Source: a virus
Taxonomy: Duplodnaviria > Caudoviricetes
Virus record (IMG/VR): IMGVR_UViG_3300049846_000516
Location: 1-47,220 of that record
Length of the DNA stretch: 47,220 nucleotides
Direction: 5' to 3' (one strand)
A program made the translations under genes and the position numbers. Below the pieces are notes generated by a model. It was not told the DNA's origin. It did no database searches and worked only from the letters and a program-made list of their open reading frames with translations. Below are positions 1,002 through 47,119 of this stretch, piece after piece. The first letter of the stretch is position 1. Every line of letters starts with the position of its first letter.

Positions 1002-1304
1002 TTAGACGTTCTCGATTACAGAGATCTTATCGCCGACGGAGACGAGGAAGTACTCTGTCTGTTCAGCGCCAAGTCGGGGGTGAGCGGTGGTAGCTTCAGG
1101 GTCTGTGCCGAACTCGTACGAGCAAGCGGCATCGGTATGGATCCGTACGAGACGGGTAGCGGTCCCGAAAGCGTTCGAGGAGGCAGCCACAGCCCCGATA
1201 GCCACGGTTTGAGTGGTGACCGAGGGTTGACGAGCTGCTTGGGTAACCTGACCACCAGCACTAGTGTTCAGGTTCTCAAATTCTTCAATGTATAGGGTTG
1301 CCAT
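1002..1304 (-). CDS. Small beta-rich hypothetical protein, probably virion-associated; first gene of the leftward arm
   Basis: 100 aa ORF, AGGT upstream of the ATG, ends 3 nt before the next minus-strand gene. Confidence 0.7.
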   Translation of the reverse strand: MATLYIEEFENLNTSAGGQVTQAARQPSVTTQTVAIGAVAASSNAFGTATRLVRIHTDAACSYEFGTDPEATTAHPRLGAEQTEYFLVSVGDKISVIENV

Positions 1305-1316
1305 AGGTTACCTAGG

Positions 1317-1490
1317 TAAAAAGTAGAGAATAACTCCTTAGAATACTTAAGTATTAAAAAGTTCCCTTAAGAATTAAATAAATAACTAAATAACTAAATA
1401 AAGAACTAAAAACTATATATATATATATTACTATTATATATATACCCTAATATTAAAAAATTGTAGAGAAATTTTTAAGGTGTCTTATGC
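1317..1490. other. Very AT-rich non-coding tract with (TA)n run and short AAATAACT repeats
   Basis: Seen directly between GC-rich flanks, followed by a C-rich run at about 1498-1516. Confidence 0.8.
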
Positions 1491-1535
1491 TATAGGTCCT
1501 CCTCCCCCCGCCCCCCGGTGTGCCCGTGCGCTCTC

Positions 1536-1850
1536 TTGTCACGTTTGTTCGCATGTTAACGTGCGCCGATTTGTTACGTTTGATGCCTTGTCACGTGTGT
1601 CACAATGTCATGCACGCACAAGCGAGCGCACCTGTCCGTAACAATGTCACGCACGCTAACAAGTTCCCGCACGTTTCCCGCCCGCAGGCGTACTAGTACA
1701 CGTTCAGTGCCTTGTTATGGTGCGTCCGATGCCCTGTTATGGTGCGTGTGCTGGCTTGTTATACGTGTGACAACCTGTTGCACGCAGTCTGACAGGTTGT
1801 CACACACTTGCGTCCGTTTGTTTGTCACGTCTGACAATCTGTCACACGTC
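1536..1850. repeat. Dispersed TGTCAC/GTGACA and TGTTATGGTGCGT repeats
   Basis: TGTCAC at about 1537, 1589, 1598, 1645, 1798, 1823, 1840; TGACA at about 1768, 1790, 1832; TGTTATGGTGCGT twice (about 1713, 1735). Confidence 0.75.
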
Positions 1851-1934
1851 GTAACATGCGTGCCCACGCGCGCGTAGGTAAAGGATCGCGCGTGCGCGCG
1901 TCGCGCGGGCGTGCGCCGGGAAAAACTCCTTTAG

Positions 1935-1947
1935 AATCAATGACTTA
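1935..1947 (+). promoter_or_regulatory. IHF binding site (distal)
   Basis: AATCAATGACTTA matches WATCAANNNNTTR, with an upstream A tract. Confidence 0.65.
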
Positions 1948-1956
1948 CGTGCTGAC

Positions 1957-2067
1957 TGTCGGGATTCTTTACGCGAAAATGGAGATATAGTGGAGAAGTG
2001 TCGGGATTTTTTACAACAAAATGGAGACATCCTGCATTTCCGCCCGAATGTGTCGGGATTCTTTACA
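1957..2067 (+). repeat. Three direct repeats TGTCGGGATT(C/T)TTTAC; candidate enhancer (UAS) sites
   Basis: Copies start at 1957, 1999 and 2051. Two read TGT-N11-ACA. The first two extend with AAAATGGAGA. Confidence 0.8.
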
Positions 2068-2111
2068 CATGTCCGAAAATGACCTAGCGCCCTCCCGAAA
2101 AACTCTTTCAA

Positions 2112-2124
2112 AATCAATAACTTA
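2112..2124 (+). promoter_or_regulatory. IHF binding site (proximal)
   Basis: AATCAATAACTTA matches WATCAANNNNTTR, about -45 to -33 of the predicted start site. Confidence 0.7.
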
Positions 2125-2130
2125 CAAACT

Positions 2131-2146
2131 TGGCACGGGGACTGCA
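2131..2146 (+). promoter_or_regulatory. sigma54 (RpoN) -24/-12 promoter
   Basis: TGGCACGGGGACTGCA versus consensus TGGCAC-N5-TTGCW; exact GG-N10-GC spacing (GG 2132-33, GC 2144-45). Confidence 0.7.
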
Positions 2147-2194
2147 TTCTCTGTGGTGTCGCCACCGAGCGTGGCTTTCGGGAGGGTTTCCAAC

Positions 2195-2782
2195 ATGGCG
2201 CGTCGCAAGCGGGCGGCGCGCATTCATCCCCGCGACGGCGTGTACTTCGATGGGGACCAATACGGCGTGTCATGGCGCTCGGAATACTCCGAAGGCGCAA
2301 GGGTCGGCGAAGCCGCGCGAAAGAGCGGTGATGCTACCCTGCTCCCGAAGGTTGTGGCAATTCCGGCCGTGACTGAGATTGCCGATCGGTCTTACTTCGT
2401 CCACAACGTCTCGGCACAGGTGGTCATCGCTGACCCTGATGGCTGGCAGTACATGCCAGAGGATGCTCCGGCAGGCAAGAGGAAAGCGAAGGCGGTTAGG
2501 ATTGCGCCCAAGATGCTGTACGCACGCTCCCGGTATGTCGGGCAGGCAGTCTCACAGCACCAGCAAATCCGCCACCAGAAGCAGTACCTTGGGCGTGGTC
2601 GGGCATTCCATCAAGGCATACAGCGCGCGCTAGAGGGCGTAGATCCTGAACTCACAGGATCCCAGCAATCCGCGTTAATGACTGCAACCATGGATGAATG
2701 CGAGCGTCGGGGTATCGACTGGCGGAAGTTCATCAAGTCCGGCAAGGATTGGAATTGGCTTGCCAAGATGTTGAACGACTGA
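2195..2782 (+). CDS. First early gene, basic hypothetical protein (195 aa)
   Basis: Start re-called to MARRKRAAR at 2195 with RBS GGAGGG at 2181. The longer track ORF overlaps the promoter. Confidence 0.75.
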   Translation: MARRKRAARIHPRDGVYFDGDQYGVSWRSEYSEGARVGEAARKSGDATLLPKVVAIPAVTEIADRSYFVHNVSAQVVIADPDGWQYMPEDAPAGKRKAKAVRIAPKMLYARSRYVGQAVSQHQQIRHQKQYLGRGRAFHQGIQRALEGVDPELTGSQQSALMTATMDECERRGIDWRKFIKSGKDWNWLAKMLND

Positions 2783-2786
2783 CATC

Positions 2787-2885
2787 AGGGAGATAGTGGA
2801 GCGTCGGCTCCATTATCTCTCCATCGAATCTCCATTATGCATCCATTGCATTCGCTGTTGCGTGGATGCATACTAGAGACTCGGA
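2787..2885 (+). promoter_or_regulatory. Two long intergenic hairpins (possible RNase III processing or stability elements)
   Basis: GGGAGATAGTGGAGC-gtcg-GCTCCATTATCTCTC, then TATGCATCCA...TGGATGCATA; no U-tract. Confidence 0.5.
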
Positions 2886-2968
2886 ATTGCACAGGAGGAA
2901 CAAGGAACAAGGCAACTAGGCCGTACTGGTATCTGTATCAGGGTGTCCACCAATAGGAGACTCTGATT

Positions 2969-3175
2969 ATGCAGCTACGCGAATTGCGAATAAGGCCGGT
3001 CGCCGACCAGTACCTTGTCATTGCTGAGTACGCTCACTATGACAATCCACTGGTCGGCTACGCCAGTCAGGTCGTAATCACCTCGTGCTGGGTCAACACC
3101 ATGCCGCAAGCGATCACGCTGGCGAAGCAGTTGTCCCGCACCAGTGTGGAAGCAACGGCGTGCAAGCCCGCTTAG
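2969..3175 (+). CDS. Hypothetical early protein
   Basis: 68 aa, RBS AGGAGA. Confidence 0.65.
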   Translation: MQLRELRIRPVADQYLVIAEYAHYDNPLVGYASQVVITSCWVNTMPQAITLAKQLSRTSVEATACKPA

Positions 3176-3335
3176 GCGGGCACCCTGATGCAGATGAGTA
3201 GAGAGGTAACATAGCCTAGCGCAACTAGGCTGTACTAGTACACGGTCGGACGGAGATCATTCCTGCAATTCGGTCGGGCTAGCCTGATTGTCTAGCCTCT
3301 GAAGATGGCAGATCCCATCATGTGAGGGACTTATA

Positions 3336-4094
3336 ATGATCGAAGTCAAGAGCGTGATCTCGGGTGAGTTCGAACCGCAGAACCTCTTCGAGGTACTCCA
3401 GGCAAGCGTCGTCATGCAGGACATGCAGGACGAGGTGAACAAGGGCAAGTCGAACGTGTACGGCTGGGTCCTGATGTTCGCCCGGAACATCTACGGCGAG
3501 GTGAAGCAGGCGTCGGCGGGTATCAATGACCCGTCCACAACGTGGCAGGAGCTGGCGGCAGCGCGCTTCATGCAGGAAGCACAGGCCGCTATCACGGCGG
3601 GCGAGGTGGCATACACCAAGAAGCAACTGGACGGCTTCAAGAACGCCGTGCGCACCATCCACTACGCCATGGAGGCAGGCGCCGACATGTTCGAGAAGGA
3701 CCAGGGCAGCGGGGCATACGTGCTCGGCGGCAAGACCCAGCTCGAACAGTGGAACAAGAAGCACCGCGCGAAGGTGGAGCAGGAGAAGCAGGACGCCCGG
3801 ATCGCAGCCGGTCGTGCTGCCGGTATCCTGCCGCAGCCGGTGCCGAAGGTCGGAGTGAGCGAACCCGAAGCCGAAACCGAGAACGGCGACAACATGCTGG
3901 ACCTGATCACGGAACCGAAGGTCCGCGCTGCGATGGAGTCCTACATCCTGCTCGTGGTGGATGGCCTGAAGGACGGCGCAACGGTGGCCGACGTGACGAA
4001 CCAGATCGAAGCGAACGCGCGGCATCTGGGGAACCACATCCGGAACAGCATCGCCAAGAACGTGGCTGCACTCAAGAAGGCGGCCGCCGGCTGA
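3336..4094 (+). CDS. Hypothetical early protein (252 aa, helical)
   Basis: RBS GAGGGA; strong G/C third-position bias. Confidence 0.85.
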   Translation: MIEVKSVISGEFEPQNLFEVLQASVVMQDMQDEVNKGKSNVYGWVLMFARNIYGEVKQASAGINDPSTTWQELAAARFMQEAQAAITAGEVAYTKKQLDGFKNAVRTIHYAMEAGADMFEKDQGSGAYVLGGKTQLEQWNKKHRAKVEQEKQDARIAAGRAAGILPQPVPKVGVSEPEAETENGDNMLDLITEPKVRAAMESYILLVVDGLKDGATVADVTNQIEANARHLGNHIRNSIAKNVAALKKAAAG

Positions 4095-4196
4095 TCACCG
4101 TCCGACTGTGTCAAGGTGTGTGAAGGCGGGCGCCTGGGTCTATCCCAGGCAGCCCGTGCTTTCGTTCGCCCATGAAATACTGGGCACACGGTGGTC

Positions 4197-4452
4197 TGTA
4201 CTAGTACAACTTGGCTAAGGCAGGGGTCTGTCTTGCAGTTGCCAGGTTGTACTAGTACAGCGCACTCGCGCTGTTGGGCAGAGTCTGTCTGGTACAATCG
4301 AGGTTGTACTAGTACAGCGGCGAGGATGGAGAGCACGATGCGAGAGTACGATGTGACCTACAAGGTGGACGTCATCGATGGGCAACGTGTACTAGTACAG
4401 GTGGTAGGTGAGGCGAAGCCTGACATCTTCAAGACACCTGGTGTACTAGTAC
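4197..4452. repeat. Cluster of five TGTACTAGTAC(A) palindromes
   Basis: Copies at 4197, 4248, 4305, 4388, 4442; further single GTACTAGTAC copies at 1690, 3232, 9144. Confidence 0.9.
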
Positions 4453-4568
4453 GTGGTACCCGTGGCGTACGGAACAGGTACTACCGAACGCAAGGCCAGC
4501 CCCGTAGTGTGCGGGCAGGCTGGAACATCCCGACCAAGGATGTCCCGTACTGGAAACAGGAGGACTGA
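4338..4568 (+). CDS. Hypothetical protein (76 aa)
   Basis: MREYDVTY start with GGAGAG RBS; TGATG coupling to the next gene. Confidence 0.7.
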   Translation: MREYDVTYKVDVIDGQRVLVQVVGEAKPDIFKTPGVLVRGTRGVRNRYYRTQGQPRSVRAGWNIPTKDVPYWKQED

Positions 4569-4777
4569 TGTCACTGGAAATCTTGATACCCGATGAGTTC
4601 GAGGTGCGCCTCTCTCGGATGAAGGGACTGCTGAACTTCGCAGCCGCAACCGATGGCACTGACCATCAGACTGCGAAGCGCGCACGGATCGACGCTGGCG
4701 AGGTATACCTGGACCTGAAGCACAGGTATATCGCACTGTACCAGGACTGGCTGGCGTACAAGGAGGGGAAGAAGTAA
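4568..4777 (+). CDS. Hypothetical protein
   Basis: 69 aa, AGGAGG RBS, coupled start. Confidence 0.75.
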   Translation: MSLEILIPDEFEVRLSRMKGLLNFAAATDGTDHQTAKRARIDAGEVYLDLKHRYIALYQDWLAYKEGKK

Positions 4778-5012
4778 CATGGTTTACGCACGAGGGTAAC
4801 GACTAGGCTATGCCGAGGTCCAGTCCCTCTATTGCGTAACGTGAGGAGCTACGTTAAGGCCGGAGGTGGGTGGGGTATAGGGTAGCATTCCCCTTAACAA
4901 GTGCCATGTATTATCCCTGTGGTGGCGGGGAATTAGCATGAGTCGGTAACAGTTCACGCTAGGCGGACGCTAACAAGCCGAGTCACCTTAATCAACAGAG
5001 CAGGAGGATGTA

Positions 5013-5261
5013 ATGAAAGAGTACACTCCCGGCATGTACGTATCAGGTCGGACGCTCGGCGAGCTGATCCAGGAACAGATGGACAAGACGGCGAAGTTCG
5101 ATCCGCTCGAACAGATCCGCAAGAACAAGGAGAGGAACCACAAGATCCTGATCTCTCGCATCGCCCTCGGCCTGCCGATCGACGGAGATACCACCATTCA
5201 ACAGATCCGGGATGCGGTCGAAGACATCGAACTGAACCTGGTGAACTGGCGGAGGGTATGA
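5013..5261 (+). CDS. Hypothetical protein
   Basis: 82 aa, AGGAGG RBS. Confidence 0.8.
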   Translation: MKEYTPGMYVSGRTLGELIQEQMDKTAKFDPLEQIRKNKERNHKILISRIALGLPIDGDTTIQQIRDAVEDIELNLVNWRRV

Positions 5262-5467
5262 TGGAACTCGAAGAGTGGAAGGGCAGGTTCGTCAAGACTC
5301 CCGGCGCGATGGTGTTCATCTGTGACGAGATGAACCACGACAAGGGCATGTCGCTAGCGCGGGAACTGTGGCGTGCGGATACGTACGTCGAGGTGTACTG
5401 CCTGAAGGGCGTGCACCCGCAGCTCTGCTTCCCGTTCTTTACCGGCCCAGACAAGCGACTGAAGTAG
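5258..5467 (+). CDS. Hypothetical protein
   Basis: 69 aa, ATGA overlap, GGAGG RBS. Confidence 0.75.
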   Translation: MMELEEWKGRFVKTPGAMVFICDEMNHDKGMSLARELWRADTYVEVYCLKGVHPQLCFPFFTGPDKRLK

Positions 5468-5483
5468 CATAGGGAGGTACGCT

Positions 5484-5711
5484 ATGGGTTTCCCTGCATG
5501 GGTTGAGAAAGAACCGTTGTTCGACCCCATTCATGAGTACAATTCGTGGGTGAAGGTGGTCGAGGAAACGGGTGTGATGTACGCAGTGCGGGAAGGGTTC
5601 GTGGCGTACATCCAGGCACACGAGTGGATGAAGATGGCGGTACGTGTTACTGCTATCGAACTCGCGAAAGCAAACAGGAGAACAGGAGATGGAAAGGAAG
5701 AGATGGCATGA
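5484..5711 (+). CDS. Hypothetical protein
   Basis: 75 aa, GGAGGT RBS. Confidence 0.75.
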   Translation: MGFPAWVEKEPLFDPIHEYNSWVKVVEETGVMYAVREGFVAYIQAHEWMKMAVRVTAIELAKANRRTGDGKEEMA

Positions 5712-5874
5712 GGTGCGGACGTACGAGGACGACTTCGAGGATCCTCTCCCTACCTCACATGATGAGGAATCGGTAGAGGAATCGGTTCGTCGTTCCCTGC
5801 GCAAGCGGGACGAGGGTCGTGCGCCTCTTGATTTCAACGACCACGAACGTGGGTTCGTTCGGGGGTACAACTGA
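5689..5874 (+). CDS. Hypothetical acidic protein (61 aa)
   Basis: MERKRWHEV start after AGGAG. Confidence 0.6.
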   Translation: MERKRWHEVRTYEDDFEDPLPTSHDEESVEESVRRSLRKRDEGRAPLDFNDHERGFVRGYN

Positions 5875-5975
5875 TGGAGTTCGGCATCGAGTACTGGAAG
5901 GCGATCGGGTTCTTCATGTACGTGTTCGCCTCTGTCGCTGCTGCAATCCTGATCCTTCGAAACAAGGAGGACTGA
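5874..5975 (+). CDS. Micro membrane protein (33 aa)
   Basis: Not in track. MEFGIEYWKAIGFFMYVFASVAAAILILRNKED, TGATG-coupled at both ends. Confidence 0.65.
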   Translation: MEFGIEYWKAIGFFMYVFASVAAAILILRNKED

Positions 5976-6169
5976 TGACCAAGCGGGACCTGATCTTCTT
6001 CGTCCTCGGCGTGTTGATCGCCCTGGTCCTCGGCATGAGCATGTTCGTTTACTCGGTCAACGAGGCAATCGAACGTGTGCATGCGGAGGGTACGTCGTAC
6101 GAGTTCGATGAAGCGTGCGACTACGGGTACGAGAACGACTGCCCAGGATTCGAGACCCATTATCACTGA
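5975..6169 (+). CDS. Small membrane-anchored protein (64 aa)
   Basis: MTKRDLIFFVLGVLIALVLG, AAGGAGG RBS. Confidence 0.7.
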   Translation: MTKRDLIFFVLGVLIALVLGMSMFVYSVNEAIERVHAEGTSYEFDEACDYGYENDCPGFETHYH

Positions 6170-6184
6170 AGCGGAGGTGTACCA

Positions 6185-6600
6185 TGTAACGCACTGAATG
6201 GGTGGGGTCCCTGCCGATAAGAGAGCCCCACCCCTTGAGTGCGTGACCCAGTGCCCACGTGACTCTAGCCTTGAGATAGCGGAGATAGTGTGACGTACTG
6301 TCCGAGCGTCAGATAGGCAGGGCTTAGAATGCCAGCGCCCCGAGTGAGGCACACTGGTTAAGAAGTCCAGACGTATGCGACTCGCTGTTGCAACCTAACA
6401 AATACCGGACTAAAGGAATCCGGGCGCTACCGTACATAGCGTGCTTAACATGCAGCGTGAATGCTCCCTGGCCCCATTGCTTACAGTCCTATTCGAAGGC
6501 CAAGATACAAGAGGACGAAGCGCAAGACCTGGTGTGCAGTGAGACACGGCATACCATGCACGATCCACTGTGCACGTAGGCTCATCCATTAATCCCCCCA
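6185..6600 (+). ncRNA. Candidate large structured ncRNA with pseudoknots
   Basis: About 450 nt gap with no RBS-supported ORF and many complementary segments (see findings). Strand assumed from flanking genes. Confidence 0.5.
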
Positions 6601-6618
6601 TCAAGACGTGGAGGTAAC

Positions 6619-8994
6619 ATGGCAAAGAGAGCCAGACGTCACGAGGTGGAGGACGACGAGCTACTAGGTGGCGCCCCGCCAAAGCGCCAACCGAAGAGGA
6701 AGTTCACGTCGAAACCGACGCCGATAGCTGCGGGTATCCTAGCCCCAGCAAACGCCACCCCGAAGGGCGGTAATGTCATCGCCCTTCATCAACCAACCAA
6801 GAAAACCAGGTTCGACTTCGAAAGCCAGACGGAGTATGAGATCTACCTGGAACTGCAGCGCATCAACAAGGAGGAACTGGAGCGGCAACTCCAGCACATG
6901 CGGGAGCTACGAGATGTTGGCCTGGTGGAGGTGACTCCGCCATCGGAACTACCCGAGCCATCAGCCTCGGCAAGCGCCGTAGTCAAGGATGAAAGCGCAG
7001 AACTCGCCGCATACCTAGCCCATCATAACCCGATGGGTGCAACCCGTAAGATCCACACGATCGAGGGCACAGTCGTACTCGATGACGGCACGGTGCTGAA
7101 GGTGAACAAGAGGCAGGACTTCTTGGATCCCGATGAACCGTACGTACCTTACGGTGGGTTCGAGGCCGATGGCCAAGTGTTTTGGCTGAGCGATGATCGC
7201 AAGCGTGATCGGAAGCAGGCCGAGCATTTCACTCGTCGATCCCAGAACTGCAGGCAGGAGCTGGGCAAGACGACCAAGACGGCGTATCTGAACGTAGCGA
7301 CGGTGCAAGAGTACCGCCCTGTGCCGGATGTGCTGTGGTTTGTCAACCATCCGGACGGCAAGAGCCGTCTGAGGGGAGACCTGAATCCGTACCCTCCGGG
7401 TCTCGTACCCGTAGGCGACGAGCTTGCCTCGTACATCCAGGATAAGAAGGAGCACGCTGCCAAGGTGGTAGCGTTCGAGAACTTCAACGTATGGTCCAAG
7501 CGGACCTGCGACAACATGCTCCGTGCTGCGGTAGATCCGCAAGAGGTGCGTGACTGGGTGTGCCGGAACATGCAAGCTCATGATTGGCGAGATCAAGCCA
7601 TCATGCAGGGACGGATCACAGGCAAGTGGGACGATCTACCATGGTCATATGCTGATGAGCTGCCCAAGGCGGCGGCGAATGACAGCGACCAGGTGTCCCC
7701 GGTCCAGCGTGGTGACCCCACAAGCGAGACCACTCCCGTGCTGCTACTACCAGCGCCCGCTCCGAAGGGCCAACTCGGTACCAGTCTGAAGCATATCGGC
7801 AGGCCGGATGCATTCGATTGGAAGTGGCCGAGCGCCAAGCAGGAGGAGGCAGACGATCTGCCGGAGCGCGAAGATACGGTGATCGTGGCCAGTGATGGCT
7901 TCGCTATCAGGGTAGGAGAGATCCATCCTGAACACCGTGAGCAGGTAGCTGAAGCTGTCTCTCGCATGCAACCTCGAGTCGTGCAGCACATGACAGAGGG
8001 CGAGGACATCGTAACACGTCTGAGCCTGGACCTCACAGACAGGCGTGCTGCTGCCACCCTGCGGATCTTGGAACGCCGGATCCGAGGGGACATTCAAGAG
8101 ATGTACGGACATCTCGAGAAGATCGTAGAGGCGCGGCTATTGGCCGAGGCTTACCAGAAGACTGGCGAGTTCAAGGTCGAGAACCGCAGTGAGTTCCTGG
8201 ATCAAGCTGGCGAGGGTGAAGTCATCACGCCGGTGCGATACCGCAAGCCTGCGCTCCTTGCGCAGTACTGGGCAGCGCCGAAGACGGCGAAGCCTCGGTT
8301 CAAGTCGATGATCGAGACGTCTGAGATACTCCAGATGGAGCGGGATGACCAACGGCATCGAGAACGGAAAGCCATGAAGCTCTGGCTAGCTGACCGTTCC
8401 AGGGTCAGGGCAGTAGAGCGGAAGGCTATCGCTCAGATGGGTGCACGTATCCGATTGCGTCGGAAGGCGGGCACTCTCGAAGTACTGGAGTCGAGGAGTT
8501 ACATCCTCAAGAAGCATGTCGAGGAGATGGAGCGGCTGGAGTCGCACCTCAACCAACAGCGTGCGATGCTCCCGCAAGAGCGGGTGTTCCTCCAGGACTT
8601 GGCTGCCGCTCAGTCTCCGCACACAGTGCGTGTGATGATGTGGCACCTCTCTCAATTCAACCGGCGGACGCTTGGCAAGGTCAAGCACGCCATGAAACTG
8701 GGCAAGAAAGAGCGGAAGACAGGAGTCTCTGCCCCCAGTACGGAGCCCGAGCGGCCCGTCAATGAGCCGGTAGTTACCATGCTCCCGGCCCGCACACCCC
8801 CATGCGATCAGGTGAAGGAACCTGAAAGCTCGCTGATACTCGTGCCCAAGGTGGAGGTGTACCAGTTCGAAGGGGACCCGCTTATCCAGTCAGTACGCCG
8901 GGCATACATCCAGCGGATGCGTGCCAGTGGGCAGTGGAAGGCGGAGGAGATCGATCTTGCTGACAAGAAGGTCTTCAGCAAGATGGTAGCGTAG
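6619..8994 (+). CDS. Large hypothetical protein (791 aa)
   Basis: GGAGGT RBS; long charged ORF; no catalytic motif recognised. Confidence 0.85.
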   Translation: MAKRARRHEVEDDELLGGAPPKRQPKRKFTSKPTPIAAGILAPANATPKGGNVIALHQPTKKTRFDFESQTEYEIYLELQRINKEELERQLQHMRELRDVGLVEVTPPSELPEPSASASAVVKDESAELAAYLAHHNPMGATRKIHTIEGTVVLDDGTVLKVNKRQDFLDPDEPYVPYGGFEADGQVFWLSDDRKRDRKQAEHFTRRSQNCRQELGKTTKTAYLNVATVQEYRPVPDVLWFVNHPDGKSRLRGDLNPYPPGLVPVGDELASYIQDKKEHAAKVVAFENFNVWSKRTCDNMLRAAVDPQEVRDWVCRNMQAHDWRDQAIMQGRITGKWDDLPWSYADELPKAAANDSDQVSPVQRGDPTSETTPVLLLPAPAPKGQLGTSLKHIGRPDAFDWKWPSAKQEEADDLPEREDTVIVASDGFAIRVGEIHPEHREQVAEAVSRMQPRVVQHMTEGEDIVTRLSLDLTDRRAAATLRILERRIRGDIQEMYGHLEKIVEARLLAEAYQKTGEFKVENRSEFLDQAGEGEVITPVRYRKPALLAQYWAAPKTAKPRFKSMIETSEILQMERDDQRHRERKAMKLWLADRSRVRAVERKAIAQMGARIRLRRKAGTLEVLESRSYILKKHVEEMERLESHLNQQRAMLPQERVFLQDLAAAQSPHTVRVMMWHLSQFNRRTLGKVKHAMKLGKKERKTGVSAPSTEPERPVNEPVVTMLPARTPPCDQVKEPESSLILVPKVEVYQFEGDPLIQSVRRAYIQRMRASGQWKAEEIDLADKKVFSKMVA

Positions 8995-9199
8995 TGCTAG
9001 TGGGCCGTGTGAATAGCGGCCCACTACTCAGTGCAAATCTGAGGAACGTAGTCACAATCTCTCAGTGAAATTCTGAGTGCGAACACCGTGTGCTAGTACC
9101 TCTCCTATATTCTAGGCTGGCCAGCGTAAAGGGGACTTCACCCGTACTAGTACATGCAACTCGGTTGCGAGTACATCGTTAACCACAGAGGAGAAAGCC

Positions 9200-9778
9200 A
9201 TGCCCGGATCGTCGAGGCAGTACACGTACCGGCTTCGTGCGAGGCCGGGCGAGGACAAGAAGTATCGAATCGTGATCCAACGTCGAGTCTTCCTGTTCTT
9301 CTGGAAGGACTGGTACCCAGTGGAGAATGCAGTGCGCTCCTTGCAGAAGGAGTACATCGACCACTTCAATCGGATGCAAGACATCATCTCCGAACTGAAA
9401 GAGGCGGAAGCCTGGGTCGAGCAGAACTTCGCGTTCCTGAACCTTGAGAACAAGCGAGAAGGTACCTCTGCCCCCTTCAAAGGGGATGCTCAGCCGTACG
9501 AATCTCTGATGCCAGACCACTCGAAAGAGTTCAAAGAGATTCGAGAGGGCTTCCCGCAAAGCCAGGGGCGTAACCGTCCCGGAGCGGGCAGCAGGTCCGT
9601 GTACCTCGGAACGACATCCAAGCGTTTCGATCTTTCCTCCCTCAACAGGGAGAACTTTGCAGCGGAGTTCGGAGCGGACCACGTGTTGGATTACCGCCCG
9701 CCGCAGCAGGATCAGTCTCGCAACAAGGGACAGAACAAGGGACAGAACCAGAACAACCGGAACCAGGACAAGGAATAG
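9200..9778 (+). CDS. Hypothetical protein (192 aa) with N/Q-rich tail
   Basis: AGGAGA RBS; C-terminal NKGQNKGQNQNN. Confidence 0.8.
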   Translation: MPGSSRQYTYRLRARPGEDKKYRIVIQRRVFLFFWKDWYPVENAVRSLQKEYIDHFNRMQDIISELKEAEAWVEQNFAFLNLENKREGTSAPFKGDAQPYESLMPDHSKEFKEIREGFPQSQGRNRPGAGSRSVYLGTTSKRFDLSSLNRENFAAEFGADHVLDYRPPQQDQSRNKGQNKGQNQNNRNQDKE

Positions 9779-9854
9779 TCGACAGCTTCAGCCCATTCAA
9801 TGCCATCGAGTGGGCTGGCTGGTGTCGACTTGGCACCGCTAGTATGGAGGTTAT

Positions 9855-9947
9855 GTGAAGACCAAGCGTAAGCTCACCCGCCACGAGAAGCGTTCCCTTC
9901 TTCGACGGGTGGAGAAGAAGCTCAAGCGTGGCCGGAGGTGGACATGA
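9855..9947 (+). CDS. Very basic micro-protein (30 aa)
   Basis: Not in track. GTG start after GGAGGT; MKTKRKLTRHEKRSLLRRVEKKLKRGRRWT; ATGA overlap with the next gene. Confidence 0.55.
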   Translation: MKTKRKLTRHEKRSLLRRVEKKLKRGRRWT

Positions 9948-10540
9948 AGATCAGTTCGGTCCTCACCCTCGGCCTGCTTCCACTGTGGCGCATGATGTCT
10001 GGCGGGACCTTGGAGGATCCTCGCTTGACGTTCGCGGTGTACTACTCCTTCGAGCACTGGGGCGCGCCGCCGAAGGAGAAGATCGAGAAGGCGTTCACCA
10101 GAACGCTTAGCCCGGAGAAGGCGAAGCTGAACTACGAGCGCTTTCTTGGCGGCGATACGCTACTTCTCAGCTCCGAGAAGGAAGCTGAGAAGATCGTGGC
10201 CGCACTCGAGAAGAGCGGGATCGAGTTCCACTTCACGGAGGTAGGCGAAGGGTTCGCCTGGATCTATTCCCAGAAGTGGGGGTGGGTCGCGGTTGAAAAA
10301 TACAACTACTGCAACTCGTGCGGCGACAAGCCAGCACGACTGCGACACCGTGGCCATCTCGTGGTCTGCAGCAGGTGCGATAGTGACGATGTCATTTTCG
10401 CGAAGAGTCTACCAGTGAAGGAGTTCATCAAGCATGTCGACAACTTCGACTCGCTCCCGTCAAGGGGCAAGGCGTCGTCGCGCGCATGGGAAGGCGGCAA
10501 CACAGTCACCTACTCATCGCTCGACGACTTCGACGACTGA
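9944..10540 (+). CDS. Hypothetical protein with CxxC...CxxC zinc ribbon
   Basis: CNSC...CSRC; GGAGGT RBS before ATG 9944. Confidence 0.75.
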   Translation: MKISSVLTLGLLPLWRMMSGGTLEDPRLTFAVYYSFEHWGAPPKEKIEKAFTRTLSPEKAKLNYERFLGGDTLLLSSEKEAEKIVAALEKSGIEFHFTEVGEGFAWIYSQKWGWVAVEKYNYCNSCGDKPARLRHRGHLVVCSRCDSDDVIFAKSLPVKEFIKHVDNFDSLPSRGKASSRAWEGGNTVTYSSLDDFDD

Positions 10541-10583
10541 GGCAATTCCGCCTCAACAACCTGCATCGCAAGGAGGTGCAACC

Positions 10584-11054
10584 ATGACCCAGGGTATCCA
10601 GAAGACCGAGAAGAACCATCGCCATCTGGCGATCGCGATCATCGTCTGCCTGCTCGGCGCCGGCAGCTTCCTGTACTGGAAGCAGGCGCACGCTGCGGAG
10701 CCGGCGTCCGAACCGGCAGCTGTCGAGGAGGTTGCTCCGGCAACCGAGCCGGCACCCGCTGCCGATGAGTCCTCGACGGCGGGCCGTGTCAGCCGTGCCT
10801 TCGGCTATCTGTTCAGCGGCGACGCTTCGAACATCGTGGCCGAGGTGAACGAGGATCTCGAGCAGCGGCAGAAGGCGGCCGACGAGCGGGATGCGCAGCT
10901 GACCGAGCGGGAAGCCGCCCTCAGCAAGGCGGAGACGGATGTCAGCCAGAAGCGGGACGAGGTGCTGCGGCGCATCGACGAGGTGAACGCTCAGCGGGAG
11001 GCGCTCACGGCCTGCGTGCTGAAAGCCATCGGAGGTGAAGAACATGCGGAGTAA
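10584..11054 (+). CDS. Membrane-anchored or exported coiled-coil protein (156 aa)
   Basis: AAGGAGGT RBS; N-terminal hydrophobic helix then AHA-A; C-terminal heptads. Confidence 0.8.
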   Translation: MTQGIQKTEKNHRHLAIAIIVCLLGAGSFLYWKQAHAAEPASEPAAVEEVAPATEPAPAADESSTAGRVSRAFGYLFSGDASNIVAEVNEDLEQRQKAADERDAQLTEREAALSKAETDVSQKRDEVLRRIDEVNAQREALTACVLKAIGGEEHAE

Positions 11055-11343
11055 GATGACGCAGCTCGCCCTGCTCGGCGGCGGGTTCCTTCTGCTTCTC
11101 AGCGCGCTGGCCATGCCGACCCCCATGCTGGCCAGCATCGTTCAGCTCGTGATCGTTGTCACGATCTCCTGGTATGCGTACCAGTGGTTCGGCGACGACA
11201 TCGCGAAGTTCATCAACGAGTGGAACGGAGTGCACAATGTCCAGCAAGAGCGGCCGGCCGAGTATGCCGGAGAACCGGGAGTACCGGAGTACCGAGAGGT
11301 CGACATCCGGAAGCCCGAGTCCGACGGCAAGACCGAGGGTTAA
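11044..11343 (+). CDS. Two-TM membrane protein (99 aa)
   Basis: GGAGGT RBS; two hydrophobic segments. Confidence 0.7.
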   Translation: MRSKMTQLALLGGGFLLLLSALAMPTPMLASIVQLVIVVTISWYAYQWFGDDIAKFINEWNGVHNVQQERPAEYAGEPGVPEYREVDIRKPESDGKTEG

Positions 11344-11530
11344 CGGCATCCTGCGGGGTGTCGCTCAGCTCTCAGTCGCCTTCATGATGGGGGTGATTGC
11401 CATCCTCGTCATCGGCGACACGGTCGGGATCAAGACCGTAGCTGACTGGGTTCAGAACGTGGCTGTAACGGCCACGATGATACTCGGTGCGGTTACGCTA
11501 CTGATCCTCCAGGTGTTCGATACGGTGTAG
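11237..11530 (+). CDS. Two-TM membrane protein, start uncertain
   Basis: ATG 11237 after GGAG; two C-terminal hydrophobic segments; overlaps the previous gene by about 107 nt. Confidence 0.5.
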   Translation: MSSKSGRPSMPENREYRSTERSTSGSPSPTARPRVNGILRGVAQLSVAFMMGVIAILVIGDTVGIKTVADWVQNVAVTATMILGAVTLLILQVFDTV

Positions 11531-11612
11531 TTGGTACACCGTCAGTGCACCTTCCCTGCCCATTCTCTGAGTGGGCAGTGGGGGCAGCATTGCCCGTAAC
11601 ACTGGAGGAATC

Positions 11613-11849
11613 GTGAGCGTCTGGTATTATTTGATTCTGATTCTGTCGGTGGATGGGACTCCGATGCTGTACTTCGAGCATCAGGTCCCCTTCAGGAACC
11701 TGAACGCTTGCTATGAGAACGGCGAGTACGAGGCAACCAAGCACCAGGAAGAGGTAGGCGGCGAGTACGTCATCTCGTACATGTGCTTGGACAAGCGCTC
11801 CGTGCAGCAACTCGAAGCGAGCCTGAACGAACGCGGCACAACGATGTAG
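11613..11849 (+). CDS. Hypothetical protein (78 aa)
   Basis: GTG start after GGAGGA. Confidence 0.7.
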   Translation: MSVWYYLILILSVDGTPMLYFEHQVPFRNLNACYENGEYEATKHQEEVGGEYVISYMCLDKRSVQQLEASLNERGTTM

Positions 11850-11857
11850 GAGGTGCG

Positions 11858-12043
11858 ATGGAATTCACGTGGTTGCTGATGCTTAGCGGGTTAGTAGTTA
11901 TCCCAGTCGTAGCGGTCAGCGAGCAAGACCACGTAGAGGGGAGCCCTGCCCCGAGAAGCAGGCGGATAGGTACCGACCGCATAGGAGATGCGTGTGGCGG
12001 CGCATCGGCGGAGCCTGGTGGTATCCTGTTCGGTCCCTTCTAA
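11858..12043 (+). CDS. Hypothetical protein (61 aa), hydrophobic N-terminus
   Basis: AGGAGGT RBS. Confidence 0.55.
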   Translation: MEFTWLLMLSGLVVIPVVAVSEQDHVEGSPAPRSRRIGTDRIGDACGGASAEPGGILFGPF

Positions 12044-12044
12044 T

Positions 12045-12600
12045 CGAGTCGAGTCCAAGACAGGTAGCGTACATCAGTAGGTTCGAATCCTACACCGTGA
12101 GGTTGGTCCCGTGTACGTGTTCCTATGCAGGTTCGAATCCTGTCCGGCTTGTCGGCCGGTGGTGGAATGGGCATACACATCTTGAGACAAGCGCAGCATA
12201 CAGGTTGCCTAAAGCCCCTCATGCTGTGACTAAAGACTCGTTAATAAACGTGGTTCGTTGTTCGTTCTAATCGGTATCGGTTCAACTCCGACATGCATGG
12301 TGGCACTGGCCCCCCGCTGCATGGTATGTGTGAGTACGCACGGTAAGACAATGCCAACGGTAGCTTGCTATCTCACGGGATACTGCTGATGTTCAGCGCA
12401 TATAGACGAGGGACAACCGCGAAAGCGAGGTATGGGTGCAAGCCCCATTGTTCTTTGATGCAAGCGTTCCATCCTTCTATAAAGAATGGAGGGTGGGTGG
12501 TGCGCATATGGGTTCAACTCCCTGAGCGGTGCAAGGGACAAACAGGTCTGCGCAAACGGAATAGCTCGCCGTAAAGATAGTGCCCAGGCTGGGGTGAAGC
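12045..12600 (+). ncRNA. tRNA-like structured RNA region with five T-arm hairpins; no canonical tRNA
   Basis: T-arm-like hairpins at 12077, 12127, 12277, 12432, 12510; Leu/Ser-type D-arm at 12162. Confidence 0.6.
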
Positions 12601-12735
12601 AGCTCCCTTATTGTACGTCGAGGGTTAAGATGCGTACACAATGCCAATAACAATTGGCTGTATGGTATGCCTCCCTAATGCCACATTGTGTGGTATGCCA
12701 TGCAGCTCTGATGTCTCTCTCAACTGGAGAACATC

Positions 12736-13041
12736 ATGTGGAAGTTTGTTGGTGACTTCCTTTGGGCAACATGCATCGACATCGCCAAGAGCCTTGGTCT
12801 TCTGGCATTGGCGATCTTGTTGCTCTTCACGCTAGCCTTCGCATCGCTCAAGGCGACACAAGGCGGCGCCCCTATGGACCACTACCGGGTGTACCCGGAG
12901 GCTACGACGCCTGGTCCCCATCGGCCTAACAGGGTCGGCTTCATGTACGCACCTCACGGTTCATTCACCGATGAGGGGTCGGTGCGCCCGGAGTACGGAG
13001 CTACCCTGACGAGCAATCGAGGGCCGCATCTCCGATTATAA
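12736..13041 (+). CDS. Membrane-anchored hypothetical protein
   Basis: 101 aa, GGAGA RBS, one TM. Confidence 0.7.
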   Translation: MWKFVGDFLWATCIDIAKSLGLLALAILLLFTLAFASLKATQGGAPMDHYRVYPEATTPGPHRPNRVGFMYAPHGSFTDEGSVRPEYGATLTSNRGPHLRL

Positions 13042-13057
13042 GAATAAGGAGGGCAGT

Positions 13058-13219
13058 ATGAATCAAGCTGCCATGAACGAGCTGCAGAAACTTCGGGTTC
13101 AGCATCACTCTCTTGGGTTGATGATCGGTGAACTCGAGACCGTCGTGTCCACGATGGACGGCCTGGATCTGATTAACGCCATCGACCAGATCTCGGCTCG
13201 GTACGGTACAGCAGCGTAA
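13058..13219 (+). CDS. Hypothetical protein (53 aa)
   Basis: Not in track. AAGGAGG RBS; MNQAAMNELQKLRVQHH... Confidence 0.7.
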   Translation: MNQAAMNELQKLRVQHHSLGLMIGELETVVSTMDGLDLINAIDQISARYGTAA

Positions 13220-13272
13220 CAGCCGACCGTAGTAATGCCAGTACTCTGCGGTCGTTCACCCATGGAGGAATC

Positions 13273-13467
13273 ATGAGCCTACTGCTCTACATGGGAGTGC
13301 CTCCCTCCCTGATGGTCCCGTTGATGATGTGGACCGAACAACTGAAGATCCTGAAGCTGCTGATTGCCGTGCAGTACCTCCAAGCCATTGCACGGCAGCA
13401 GCATATGGGTCTTCCCCCTGGTGAACAGTATCGTCAGCACCTCAAGGCTGGCGGTTACCGACCGTAA
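13273..13467 (+). CDS. Hypothetical protein
   Basis: 64 aa, GGAGG RBS. Confidence 0.65.
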   Translation: MSLLLYMGVPPSLMVPLMMWTEQLKILKLLIAVQYLQAIARQQHMGLPPGEQYRQHLKAGGYRP

Positions 13468-13479
13468 AAGGAGGCAGCC

Positions 13480-13692
13480 ATGAAGAAGTGGCTTCCAATT
13501 GCGGGCGCGTGGGTCGCATCGGACTGGTTCTCGCTGCTCCAACTGGGGTGGCTGAAGGGCCAGTGGCCGGCGATGTATGACGGAGTGATGAACTTCGTCA
13601 TGCCGATCTCGATGGGGATCCACACGTTCGTCGTGGCTACGTGGAACGTGACCAAGGACTTGGTCCTGGACATCGCAGCCAACACGAGCTAG
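13480..13692 (+). CDS. Hydrophobic hypothetical protein
   Basis: 70 aa, AAGGAGG RBS. Confidence 0.7.
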   Translation: MKKWLPIAGAWVASDWFSLLQLGWLKGQWPAMYDGVMNFVMPISMGIHTFVVATWNVTKDLVLDIAANTS

Positions 13693-43061: not shown

Positions 43062-43345
43062 TTATGCATCGCTTCAATAATTTGTATTAATGTGTATATA
43101 CCGGCTATGACAGAGGGAACAGCTAGAACAAGGGTCTTTGCTTGTCGGGCCGTATTCCCATTTGCTTCAGTGATATCTCTAAGATTCTCAAGCTTATTAA
43201 TAGTAGTATCTTTGACATCGTCTACTTTCTTAAGTAGAGTCTTCATGTCATCATTATGCCTACCGAACTGAGAACTTAATACTGCTATATCTACTTCTAC
43301 TTTCTCTACCCGCCGTATAATATCGGAATGGGTAACTTCATTCAT
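43058..43345 (-). CDS. Coiled-coil protein with C-terminal TM helix
   Basis: 95 aa; XhlA-like architecture, function unproven. Confidence 0.55.
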   Translation of the reverse strand: MNEVTHSDIIRRVEKVEVDIAVLSSQFGRHNDDMKTLLKKVDDVKDTTINKLENLRDITEANGNTARQAKTLVLAVPSVIAGIYTLIQIIEAMHK

Positions 43346-44961
43346 CTACTGCGTACTCGTCCGCCGAACCGCCCAACAACCACGTTTGAGCGGGAGTTCA
43401 GATTATCGTAGTCCACTCCACGTCCAGCAGAGGGGGGTTTAGCGATACTCATAGCGGCAGTCAGAGCATCTTTGAGGTCGTCGTGACGCGGCTTAGCCGA
43501 CATTAGCTCTTCTTCGAGTGCCGGGATAAGTCCTCCGGAGTAATGTAGTACACCTTTGCCGTGGTACTTTGGTTCAAGGACTGCTGCCCAGTTCTCAACT
43601 TTACTACCGCTTCTGCTATTTTTGGCGCGTCTAACCACAACAAGAGAGTCTCCGTTTCTACGGATAAAATTTTCAACTTCTTGTGCAACGAGAGATCCCG
43701 CCGCATTTGTTTCGACAATGAGCTGACGGAAGAACCATCGTCGGTGCATCGCCGCGATACGCTCGTAGTAAGTGAGGAAGTCAGATGTTCTAAAGCGGTC
43801 AAGCTCCAGCACATAAATGAAACCGTCGGAATCAATACCGATAACAGCAATAGCTGTATAGTCTGCCCGCTCGCTCTCAGACCACGCCACATCCATTGCG
43901 GCGTAAACGTTAAGCTTTTTATTTTGGAAGTAAATCTTGTCATTCCGGACAGTAAGGTATTTCGAATCATAGTATTGAAACAGGCTCCTGCTAATCCGCT
44001 GCGTACCAACATCGTTCGGATCGTTATAGTACTGGGAAAAGAAATGAATCAATCCTTGGTGGGATACGTAATCTGCTTTAATCTTAGAAAGTTCTTTGAT
44101 ATCAAAGCCGAACCACTTCCCTGTATTGGGGCATTCGGTCCTAGGCCACAGGAATTTACCAGTGCCTAAGCGCTGAGGGGAGTCCTCAACAACTTTCTCC
44201 ATTACATCCCATGCCGGAATTTCTCCTTCGAAGTCTTGCTTCTCTTCATTCCATTGAGGGATAGTGGCATCAATCATCGATTGGTACGCATCCTCCGGAT
44301 GATACCGCGTGCCAACAGCCTTGATCCATCCACCAGCATTAAGGATAGAGCTATAATACCCAAGAGACCTAGCAAGTTCTCCCCTGCCAGTGGCAGTGTC
44401 AGCGAAAATGGGGACAACCACATCATCAAAGATAAGACCATCGCAGTGCAAACCGTGGGCATTACTCTTGACAGTCTTAATGAGCATCGTGTGATCTCGG
44501 ATGCTTCTTTCTCTCCGAGATGGATGGTCAACATCGAACGCGAAAGCGGACCACGTACCTCTCTCACCTTTAATACCTCGTTGTTCAGAGAACATCTCAG
44601 GCCAAAGAGATGTATAGATATCAGAAGTCATCATCTGTTTGATTGCAAACAGCTGGGCTTTAGCCAGATCGTCCTGTGACGCTAGATAAACTATTGTAGT
44701 CCACGGCTCATACGTGATCTTCCAAGTGCAATACACCGCGATACAATGACTCTTGAGGTGACCGCGAGGAAGCAATAGAAGCTGACGCTCATTAGCGTCA
44801 GGGGCAGACAGCCATGCGAATACATCGCGATGGATATCGCCGTACAGATACGCGGGATTGATTGTAGTCGCAAAAGCATAAAGGTTGTTCTCGCAAGCCT
44901 CGATGATCTCTTGCTGGTACGCCCGCTTCTGTTTATGAAGCTTCAGGAGTTCCGGAGTCAT
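43342..44961 (-). CDS. terL: Terminase large subunit
   Basis: LLPRGHLKS Walker A variant, IFDDVV Walker B, GTRYH, nuclease D motifs (AMDVA, ADYTA, HDDLKDA). Confidence 0.93.
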   Translation of the reverse strand: MTPELLKLHKQKRAYQQEIIEACENNLYAFATTINPAYLYGDIHRDVFAWLSAPDANERQLLLLPRGHLKSHCIAVYCTWKITYEPWTTIVYLASQDDLAKAQLFAIKQMMTSDIYTSLWPEMFSEQRGIKGERGTWSAFAFDVDHPSRRERSIRDHTMLIKTVKSNAHGLHCDGLIFDDVVVPIFADTATGRGELARSLGYYSSILNAGGWIKAVGTRYHPEDAYQSMIDATIPQWNEEKQDFEGEIPAWDVMEKVVEDSPQRLGTGKFLWPRTECPNTGKWFGFDIKELSKIKADYVSHQGLIHFFSQYYNDPNDVGTQRISRSLFQYYDSKYLTVRNDKIYFQNKKLNVYAAMDVAWSESERADYTAIAVIGIDSDGFIYVLELDRFRTSDFLTYYERIAAMHRRWFFRQLIVETNAAGSLVAQEVENFIRRNGDSLVVVRRAKNSRSGSKVENWAAVLEPKYHGKGVLHYSGGLIPALEEELMSAKPRHDDLKDALTAAMSIAKPPSAGRGVDYDNLNSRSNVVVGRFGGRVRSR

Positions 44962-45449
44962 TTAACGATCTTAAGTTCCGATAGGCGCGCAAGCCTATTC
45001 TCGAGCATTTCAGTTTCTTTAGTCGACTGATCTTGTTGAATCTTTTCGCGAATCTTTTGTTCGCGCTCTTCTTTACGGGCTTCGTACAGAAGTTTCTGTG
45101 CCGAGACATTCCCTTTCTGTGCGGCATCCCACAGAAGTCGGCGAGCAATAGCCTGATCCCGTTGGTACTTCTCTTCGCGCCAGTCCTCGATAACGCGCCG
45201 GATCTTAACACAGATCTTCAGCATATTCTTCCAGTACTCCCACGATGGGGTGAGGGCTACTGCCGCTTCGTACTCATTAACGCAATCCATATAGATTTTA
45301 TAAGCAGAAGGGAGGTCATCATCTTCATGCTTAGTGGTGTACACTGGCTCTTTCGGTTCGTTCTTAATCCATTGGCCGGAGAGCGGAACCTCTCGAAAGA
45401 TCCCATGGAACGGAACGCCATCACTGTAGTAGAACTTAGAAGTATCCAT
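44958..45449 (-). CDS. Putative terminase small subunit
   Basis: Helical 163 aa gene coupled upstream of terL; A..GNVSAQK.L motif; start re-called to MDTSK. Confidence 0.5.
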   Translation of the reverse strand: MDTSKFYYSDGVPFHGIFREVPLSGQWIKNEPKEPVYTTKHEDDDLPSAYKIYMDCVNEYEAAVALTPSWEYWKNMLKICVKIRRVIEDWREEKYQRDQAIARRLLWDAAQKGNVSAQKLLYEARKEEREQKIREKIQQDQSTKETEMLENRLARLSELKIVK

Positions 45450-47119
45450 TACATTATTACATAATCGAACGTGCCATCTGCTCCAAGGGCAGAAGTTACA
45501 GTACAAGTGAACGACGTCTTGTTAACCTTAGTTACATACATCCCGTTAGCAGCAGCCACTGCGGCAGCCATGGTTGCATTCGTCGGGGTGATTGTGATAA
45601 CCGATCCAAGAGTAACGTTAGCGTTAGTAACGGTTACGTTCGACTGGCCGCTCGAGATCGTTGCCGATCCCTTCAAGCTCGCGCCGAGATCGCGGACGTT
45701 CCCACACATCGTGATGTACGTAGAGTCGGTAGACGGGCCGAAGTTCTGCGGCACGATCTGATCGGTTACGTTCCCGTGAGCGGTATTCCAAGATACAGTA
45801 GACCGGTCACAGTTCGAGATATAGATTCCATTGTCCTGAGTAGCAGCACCGCTATCGTAGCAGTGGTTCCCAGAGATCACAATGTAATCTGAGTCAGCAC
45901 CACGAATACCGTCAGATCCGTTGTCGAAGCAAACGTTATCATATACTTGGCAGTAGTCGGCGTTGTTAATGATGATGCCGTGGGTAGTATTAGAGTAGCA
46001 TCGGCAGTCGGATACAGAGGTACCATTTGCCGTTACGTTAATACCATGGCCACCATTGCTGGCAGCGATGACGTCAGAGATCACAACCTTTGCAGCGGTA
46101 CTTGCAACATGTACACCGTTATCTTGCGACCCAATCACTTGTCCAGAGGTCAGCATCAAACCGCTTACACGGCCGATGTTAATCCCGTATCCAATCGAGT
46201 CAGCGTCAGTATCAAGAGTACCAGCGCCATAGATGTTGAACCCGCTGATTACTACGTTATCGCATGCGGTAGAACCGCCAGTGCCGTACTCAAGTACAAT
46301 ACCACTGCTTGCGAGAGTACGCGTGCTGAATCCAGTACAGGTGAACTGACGTTGACCGCCGAGTTCAAGACCACGTCCGCCAGCTGCAGGATCATTCTCA
46401 AGGCCGTTGTACGTGGTATCTCCGATGCTGGAGTTCCCATAACATGCAGTAGAGGTCTCTGCGTCGAATGCGAAGGCATCGTCTTCGTGGTTAATAACCA
46501 CGTTCCCGATACTCTTGCAGTACTTACATTCGCCAAAGAATGTGATACCGGTACCATTCGTACCATCTACGCGACAGTTCTCAACCGTTACGTACTCAGA
46601 TGGATAATGAACGCTAGTATCCAGAAGACCTGCTACAAGGATTGCTTGGGTAGCAGCGTCCTTAATGAGAACATTCTTAATAAGACAGTTCTTAACGTAC
46701 TTCAGAGCGATCGTCGGTACAGCGGTAGACGAGAAGTCTCCGCCATCGATCATCAAGTTCTCAATGATGATGTTCGAATCTTGTGCCGTAGTCGTACCCC
46801 AGTGTACGTTCTTGATACATTTACCTGCAGAGGCGAGTACGATCTTGCTCGACCATCCATCGCCGTACAGGCGCGTATCGGATTTCAGAGTGATTGCGTC
46901 CGGGTCTACAGTCCACGTGCCCGAAGGAACGTAGATGCTGCCAGTGAGATTACAGGCAGTATTGAAAGCGACAGTACAATCGTCGCCAGAGACAGCGCCA
47001 TATCGACGGATGTCGCCGGCCGGATAACCCCAGTCTACGCTTGTGATGTTCGCCGTAACTTCTTCATCGGTGAGATCGAAGTACCGAAGCTTTTCTACGT
47101 TAAGTCTTGCTTGTGTCAT
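45449..47119 (-). CDS. Tailspike / depolymerase with right-handed beta-helix (pectate lyase-like)
   Basis: DIRRYGA..GDDCT.AF..A, YVPSGTW, repeated N..GI..N coils. Confidence 0.85.
   Translation of the reverse strand: MTQARLNVEKLRYFDLTDEEVTANITSVDWGYPAGDIRRYGAVSGDDCTVAFNTACNLTGSIYVPSGTWTVDPDAITLKSDTRLYGDGWSSKIVLASAGKCIKNVHWGTTTAQDSNIIIENLMIDGGDFSSTAVPTIALKYVKNCLIKNVLIKDAATQAILVAGLLDTSVHYPSEYVTVENCRVDGTNGTGITFFGECKYCKSIGNVVINHEDDAFAFDAETSTACYGNSSIGDTTYNGLENDPAAGGRGLELGGQRQFTCTGFSTRTLASSGIVLEYGTGGSTACDNVVISGFNIYGAGTLDTDADSIGYGINIGRVSGLMLTSGQVIGSQDNGVHVASTAAKVVISDVIAASNGGHGINVTANGTSVSDCRCYSNTTHGIIINNADYCQVYDNVCFDNGSDGIRGADSDYIVISGNHCYDSGAATQDNGIYISNCDRSTVSWNTAHGNVTDQIVPQNFGPSTDSTYITMCGNVRDLGASLKGSATISSGQSNVTVTNANVTLGSVITITPTNATMAAAVAAANGMYVTKVNKTSFTCTVTSALGADGTFDYVIM

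Follow-up and report, generated by a model that had tools for sequence, protein, structure and literature searches.

A sigma54 promoter cassette with PEP-CTERM boxes at the head of a phage early arm, and the host regulator PrsR as its predicted reader

What starts transcription of the first early gene in a phage genome that places a sigma54 promoter directly in front of it? The DNA analyzed here, 47,220 nt in all and referred to as the window, had been described in a sequence-only reading as carrying a sigma54 promoter with IHF sites and upstream repeats, possibly fired by a host enhancer-binding protein, and PilR had been suggested as that protein. Conservation, together with recurrence in unrelated phages, supports the sigma54, IHF and host enhancer-binding protein part of that reading; PilR as the activator is not supported. 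The three boxes, two IHF motifs and -24/-12 element stand in a host-like geometry, and in bacteria this box stands ahead of PEP-CTERM genes and turns up together with prsR. We put at roughly 0.6 the probability that the cassette lets phosphorylated host PrsR (PrsR-P) and IHF fire sigma54 RNA polymerase at gene 1, likely tying the onset of infection to the floc-forming state.

Genome layout and the promoter cassette

Judged by its gene content, the window is a podovirus-type, Zobellviridae-like genome. According to a PHROGs scan, the + strand encodes a primase-helicase, a T7-like DNA polymerase, an exonuclease and endonuclease VII, and the - strand encodes the head, tail and terminase proteins. 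The terminase large subunit (43342..44961, - strand) shows 44% identity to its counterpart in Vibrio phage ICP2, of the Zobellviridae, and ICP2 (NC_015158) and the cobaviruses (PMC6775973) share with the window the two-arm layout, the T7-like polymerase, the primase-helicase and the absence of a detected RNA polymerase. The divergent arms are separated by a gene-free stretch (1305-2194) that includes the cassette. Since the arms of cobaviruses converge and are flanked by short terminal repeats (PMC6775973), the physical genome end probably lies inside this stretch, and the DNA from 2195 onward is probably that expressed first.

The part of the gene-free stretch preceding the cassette (1305..1888) is a probable genome end, and its AT tract, C tract and TGTCAC/GTGACA repeat cluster (1320-1845) vary among the contigs of the runs; contig depth near 1350-1650 was uneven and does not place the end. 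The window DNA is present in three runs from two studies, labelled freshwater and freshwater sediment, with one run possibly the source of the record, and no RNA dataset was listed as containing it. The record was scored as 100% complete, yet at least 2,087 nt are absent between 47220 and 1, as the relative L004 extends past 47220; judged from the relative L005 the missing part is about 4.7 kb, and all genes there belong to the structural arm. The early arm (2195..13692, + strand) runs from small genes without a known family to the primase-helicase and DNA polymerase genes, and from 6619 onward its ORFs are syntenic with the relative L371. The early protein encoded at 6619-8994 (791 aa, no family match) has an 830-aa counterpart at the equivalent position in L371, and a stretch with few genes and tRNA-like T-arm motifs (12040-12720) resembles a similarly gene-poor stretch there; ARAGORN found no tRNA genes.

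The cassette spans 270 bp (1889..2158, + strand). Its sigma54 -24/-12 element, TGGCACGGGGACTGCA, lies on the + strand at 2131..2146, exactly where a GG-N10-GC element had been read, with GG at 2132-33, GC at 2144-45 and 10 nt between them, and transcription is predicted to start at 2157. The repeat TGTCGGGATTYTTTAC occurs at 1957, 1999 and 2051, with no further copy in the window. These three boxes (box 1, 1957..1973; box 2, 1999..2015; box 3, 2051..2067; all + strand) have their 5' ends at -200, -158 and -106 relative to the predicted +1, close to the 200, 160 and 105 nt upstream of the start given in the sequence-only reading, which had also described two of them, here boxes 2 and 3, as TGT-N11-ACA. 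Their distances to the -24 element are 158, 116 and 64 nt, giving steps of 42 and 52 nt.

The IHF consensus WATCAAN4TTR, used here, like the sigma54 and GAFTGA motif definitions, in what we take to be its standard form, has only two matches across both strands of the 47 kb, and they are the two sites already pointed out: an upstream site (1935..1947, + strand) inside a 29-nt repeat (1920-1948 / 2097-2125) and a promoter-proximal site (2112..2124, + strand; -45 to -33) that falls between the boxes and the sigma54 element. The ribosome-binding site and ATG expected to follow are there as well, as a Shine-Dalgarno sequence GGAGG (2181..2185, + strand) and the start codon of gene 1 (2195..2782, + strand), which leaves 48 nt between the sigma54 element and the start codon (2146 to ATG 2195). 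Two full-length homologues, P0002 and P0003, begin at the identical residue and align with ATG 2195, against an upstream ATG at 2021. The 195-aa product of gene 1 belongs to no known family (no match in Pfam, PHROG or Atlas) and has three homologues of 56-71% identity; among viral contigs no relatives of gene 1 or of the 252-aa gene were found, and an AlphaFold model from four sequences reached a pLDDT of 45.

The proposed scoring against a random background, which we carried out with 200 order-2 Markov genomes, bore out the boxes and not the IHF and sigma54 motifs by themselves. The box pattern was seen three times against 0 per Markov genome, and box plus sigma54 once against 0; chance does not account for the three repeats or for how they are spaced. 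The IHF motif was seen twice against 0.93 expected and TGGCAC-N6-TGC once against 0.32 expected, and at these expected counts the two motifs are individually non-significant. Under a matrix of host sites the sigma54 element has the top score of the window, a moderate 12.3 bits that lies only 1.1 bits above the runner-up and below the training median of 18.5. The boxes score 19.8, 24.2 and 24.4 bits (boxes 1 to 3) under a matrix of 38 host PEP-CTERM boxes, where the next best score in the genome is 5.2; as those 38 were chosen by a pattern derived from the phage repeat, the box scores are partly circular, while the association with genes is not.

A second phage, found in all three runs, shares 1889-2158 alone out of 1860-2320, at about 86% identity, with unlike sequence flanking this island on both sides, and the island terminates at the predicted start site. 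Of 24 listed substitutions (1919-2128), none falls on the 51 consensus positions, out of 210, that belong to the boxes and IHF sites (P = 8e-4); the list leaves out ten differences near the alignment ends, six of them probably within 2129-2158, i.e. around GG/GC. The upstream IHF site has no listed change and the proximal site has two, both in the N4 spacer. Conservation, which the earlier reading had named as a check, thus holds for the boxes and IHF consensus in this co-occurring phage; it is the one phage in which kin conservation could be read, because the terminase/primase relatives (L004-L011, L370 and L371) end before the junction and no closer relative reaching it was found.

The repeats and the PEP-CTERM box of bacteria

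By sequence, the phage repeats match the PEP-CTERM box, the predicted binding site of PrsR. Haft 2006 (PMC1569441) describes a 17-nt motif 1, ending in TTTACA and sometimes repeated, which lies in a noncoding region 23-221 nt before the start codon and is separated from a sigma54 motif by 62.8 +/- 10.6 nt (range 32-92 nt); that PrsR binds this motif is itself a prediction (PMC1569441, PMC9850573). The phage boxes, compared by text and by the 38-site matrix, are three copies of a 17-nt motif ending in TTTACA, the cassette is noncoding and within 23-221 nt of the start codon, and the spacer on Haft's measure is 63 nt (2067 to 2131), inside the 32-92 range. What sets the phage region apart from the bacterial one as accessible in PMC1569441 is that it is phage-borne, heads an early arm and precedes a gene without a PEP-CTERM tail (a TIGR02595 search of the window found nothing at E <= 1) or a signal peptide-like N-terminus.

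The association of such boxes with PEP-CTERM genes was recovered in two sets of bacterial loci. In bacterial genome contigs we found 25 loci with the tandem degenerate repeat, mostly followed by a -24/-12 element and then a secreted protein. Among 19 ORFs scanned 3' of tandem boxes, nine scored above the TIGR02595 cut-off, two matched related PEP-CTERM models below cut-off, three were receiver-less PrsR-like activators and five were other or unmatched. Hosts of the PEP-CTERM box region are expected to encode PrsK, PrsR and PrsT; PrsR scored over the TIGR02915 cut-off in 10/16 tandem-box genomes versus 0/14 controls, the other six box-bearing genomes (MAGs) having no PrsR over the cut-off. At four alphaproteobacterial loci (L092, L093, L096 and L104) tandem boxes stand before a receiver-less PrsR-like activator gene, the three scanned having TIGR02915 as their best match, below cut-off; such genes may form a possible second tier of the regulon.

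A metagenome scan for box, IHF and TGGCA listed at least 120 of about 190 loci, 112 of them distinct. In these 112, IHF lies between box and promoter by construction of the pattern, while GC at -12, present in 105, is absent from it. Their spacers peak at 53-54, 62-65 and 74, one helical turn apart, and 64, the phage value on the same measure, is the mode (26/112 listed loci). The ORFs downstream were scanned for the first 80 listed loci, which, less two duplicates and six loci without an ORF in range, left 72. PF07589 (PEP-CTERM) matched 42 of the 72, 38 over cut-off; the remainder included one VPDSG-CTERM protein, one Flp pilin and 0 type IVa pilins, with several others cut by contig ends. 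That Flp pilin gene, which stands behind a host box/IHF/sigma54 cassette, is L150:3169-3423.

This tally contradicts the suggestion that the repeats are PilR-type sites connecting infection to pili, and PilR as reader of the boxes was rejected. Since PEP-CTERM genes and PrsR are what the repeats accompany, they point to the formation of flocs or matrix, and not to pili. In Zoogloea, loss of prsK or prsR gives planktonic cells that shed their EPS (PMC9012009, summarising Gao 2018), and in Aquincola a PEP-CTERM gene depends on RpoN1 and has a TGGCAC/CTGC promoter that was mapped (PMC9850573). Neither PrsR nor RpoN is needed for EPS synthesis in the two hosts studied (PMC9012009, PMC9850573), which weakens the idea of a receptor whose synthesis is simply co-regulated with the promoter; a link to the cell-bound matrix and to host density is the more likely one. 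A beta-helix tailspike-like gene (45449..47119, - strand; PF13229, E 3e-14) would fit a polysaccharide receptor, and many phages have one. A sequence search of this tailspike against the PDB gave 0 matches, and its slot in the relatives L005 and L008 holds pectate-lyase-like proteins (PF12708).

Spread among phages

In viral contigs the box plus sigma54 cassette was found at 16 loci, against 0 for a letter-permuted control. Five of these loci, in four lineages (L109, L112, L113 and L121/L123), point away from an adjacent terminase gene, and the terminases fall into four PHROG families (675, 38, 9 and 2), the L121 terminase itself having no PHROG match and being grouped with L123 by DNA identity. 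At least four terminase lineages thus have the cassette in front of their early arm. The same divergent layout, with no terminase match, is seen in L110 and L117, and the L119 cassette diverges from repressor-like genes. Other cassettes lie inside same-strand gene blocks (L116, L122), precede PEP-CTERM-like cargo genes as judged by C-termini (L120, L124), or stand less than 200 nt from a contig end (L114, L115, L118); L111 is weak. L001/L002 is a further unrelated phage with the cassette. The first genes behind the cassettes are mutually unrelated, L121/L123 excepted, in a comparison of 11 viral and two window genes that excludes L111, L116, L120 and L124 and in which L115 is out of frame. The terminase-like gene of L121 (L121:5739-7727) contains an intein that L123 lacks.

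A search with the box alone, where the promoter is not built into the result, returned 120 loci, 88 of them distinct with room on both sides. A sigma54 motif lies downstream on the same strand in 13/88 of these, versus 3/176 control windows (P = 7e-5). Under a looser rule the motif accompanies 9/14 multi-box loci with room downstream, the other five having no match, and 7/80 single-box loci; most single boxes in viral contigs are chance. A survey of 21 records, mostly fragments, for tyrosine integrases and sigma54 activators found a tyrosine integrase in one (the cargo provirus) and a sigma54 activator of the phage's own in one (G003). A search with TIGR02595 over 22 viral records gave no match, nor did its positive control. 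A blastn search of the cassette against cultured phages returned 30-nt pieces only, mostly the IHF motif, among the matches listed (40 of 168 records).

Co-option of host regulators by phages has been described for CtrA, and also for LexA and Spo0A (PMC9437464). A close parallel is the CtrA-site arrays of alphaproteobacterial phages, discussed as 'lytic deferment' (Mascolo 2022, PMC9437464), in which unrelated phages have likewise come, by convergence, to carry host-regulator sites between divergent blocks. Those arrays, as the accessible text presents them, read the cell cycle through a modulatory regulator whose binding was shown, whereas here a sigma54 enhancer-binding protein, its binding predicted, would be obligatory for initiation and would report floc formation. 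The virulent Pseudomonas phage YuA also uses host sigma54, at the sigma54-like promoter P015, for which the accessible part of PMC10914365 names no enhancer or activator and gives no description as a first promoter. A search mostly without subscription journals turned up no paper that describes PrsR boxes at the early promoters of phages. The cassette is real and non-random, and its cis-element is already known in bacteria; here it stands as a further form of host-regulator co-option by phages, with a named, predicted regulator and a convergent spread.

A named host regulator for a phage sigma54 promoter makes a vague idea testable in tractable floc formers (Zoogloea, Aquincola). If it is correct, lytic phages would sense, before they commit, whether bacteria in sludge, sediment and biofilms are aggregated. 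This could be part of the reason that plating on planktonic cultures misses such phages, and it would matter for the stability of flocs in wastewater treatment; the box would also be a short DNA marker predicting PrsR-positive hosts for uncultured phages.

What would fire the first promoter

Sigma54 holoenzyme cannot initiate without an AAA+ activator and has no basal activity, and IHF bends the DNA between enhancer and promoter. As had been reported, no such activator is visible in the window (0 candidates for the sigma54-activator domain PF00158, with a control that matched 14/14), and there is no phage RNA polymerase among the 55 window ORFs scanned with PHROGs; in a profile search with PF00940 the control itself matched nowhere. 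Neither a sigma70-like promoter on the + strand of 1-14100 nor a sigma70 consensus site within the 12.7 kb of early arm was found, by a crude scanner that detects one or two sites at the corresponding junction of ICP2 and finds fewer sites overall than in shuffles. The ICP2 junction (NC_015158), unlike the window's, carries three sigma70 promoters by annotation and neither a box nor a sigma54 motif.

In the reading we prefer, the left end would be injected, PrsR-P would bind the boxes, IHF at -45 to -33 would loop the DNA, and transcription would start near 2157. Since neither a further strong early promoter nor an activator of the phage's own was seen, infection would be efficient only with PrsK/PrsR on, that is, in aggregated, matrix-coated cells, with progeny released near dense hosts. 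Because the PEP-CTERM box switch recurs in several unrelated phages, we consider it likely that cassette phages begin infection only when host PrsR is active. A wider proposal is more tentative, and we offer it as possible: that the first transcription step has been coupled to host PrsR independently in many unrelated lytic phages, so that an obligatory sigma54 lock would keep the DNA silent in planktonic cells and fire when the host joins or builds a floc (floc-sensing lytic deferment).

The alternative that survives best keeps the same PrsR/sigma54 promoter and removes the gate: PrsR would be mostly active, or weak promoters would suffice, and the phage would simply borrow the host's strongest, highly expressed promoter type. 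No signal for PrsK is identified in the accessible text of PMC1569441, pepA transcription is high in wild-type culture (PMC9850573), TTGACA-type motifs lie downstream of the cassette in L157, and the L116 and L122 cassettes sit within gene blocks, away from the start of an arm. Repeated independent placement at the head of the early arm nevertheless fits dependence, as do the lack of a sigma70 consensus site in the early arm and of basal sigma54 activity, and we regard the ungated version as rather unlikely.

It is improbable that the boxes are read by a different activator, whether a PrsR paralogue, PilR or a phage protein. Boxes do precede the receiver-less PrsR-like gene at the four alphaproteobacterial loci, one host locus drives a Flp pilin, and phage G003 encodes an activator; against this, none of the 72 downstream ORFs is a type IVa pilin, PF00158 is absent from the window, and a phage-made activator would have to enter with the DNA to act on the first promoter. 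Just as improbable is a role of the repeats and IHF sites in packaging, replication or as a decoy (terminase or initiator sites, or a PrsR sponge) with an incidental -24/-12 match. In its favour are the position of the cassette beside the probable terminus, the action of IHF at the ends and origins of phage genomes, and an expectation of 0.3 sigma54 motifs per genome from chance; against it, the box recurs with four unrelated terminase families, its spacing to the -24 element is host-modal and in phase, sigma54 motifs are enriched downstream only and on the same strand, and the island shared with the co-occurring phage stops at the predicted start.

Two further observations concern later steps. 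The activator of G003, the phage of L110, is a 280-aa protein (L245:15533-16372) with a sigma54 activator domain (PF00158, E 1.5e-55) and no receiver or HTH match, and the same genome has two further sigma54 motifs, at L245:7541 and 12407; this suggests transcription that is started by the host and then continued under phage control. In the window, the palindrome GTACTAGTAC occurs in eight copies, all within 1690-9153 (the junction and early arm), several of them just upstream of the ORFs at 3336, 4338 and 9200; a regulator made by the phage may act at this candidate site in the step that follows.
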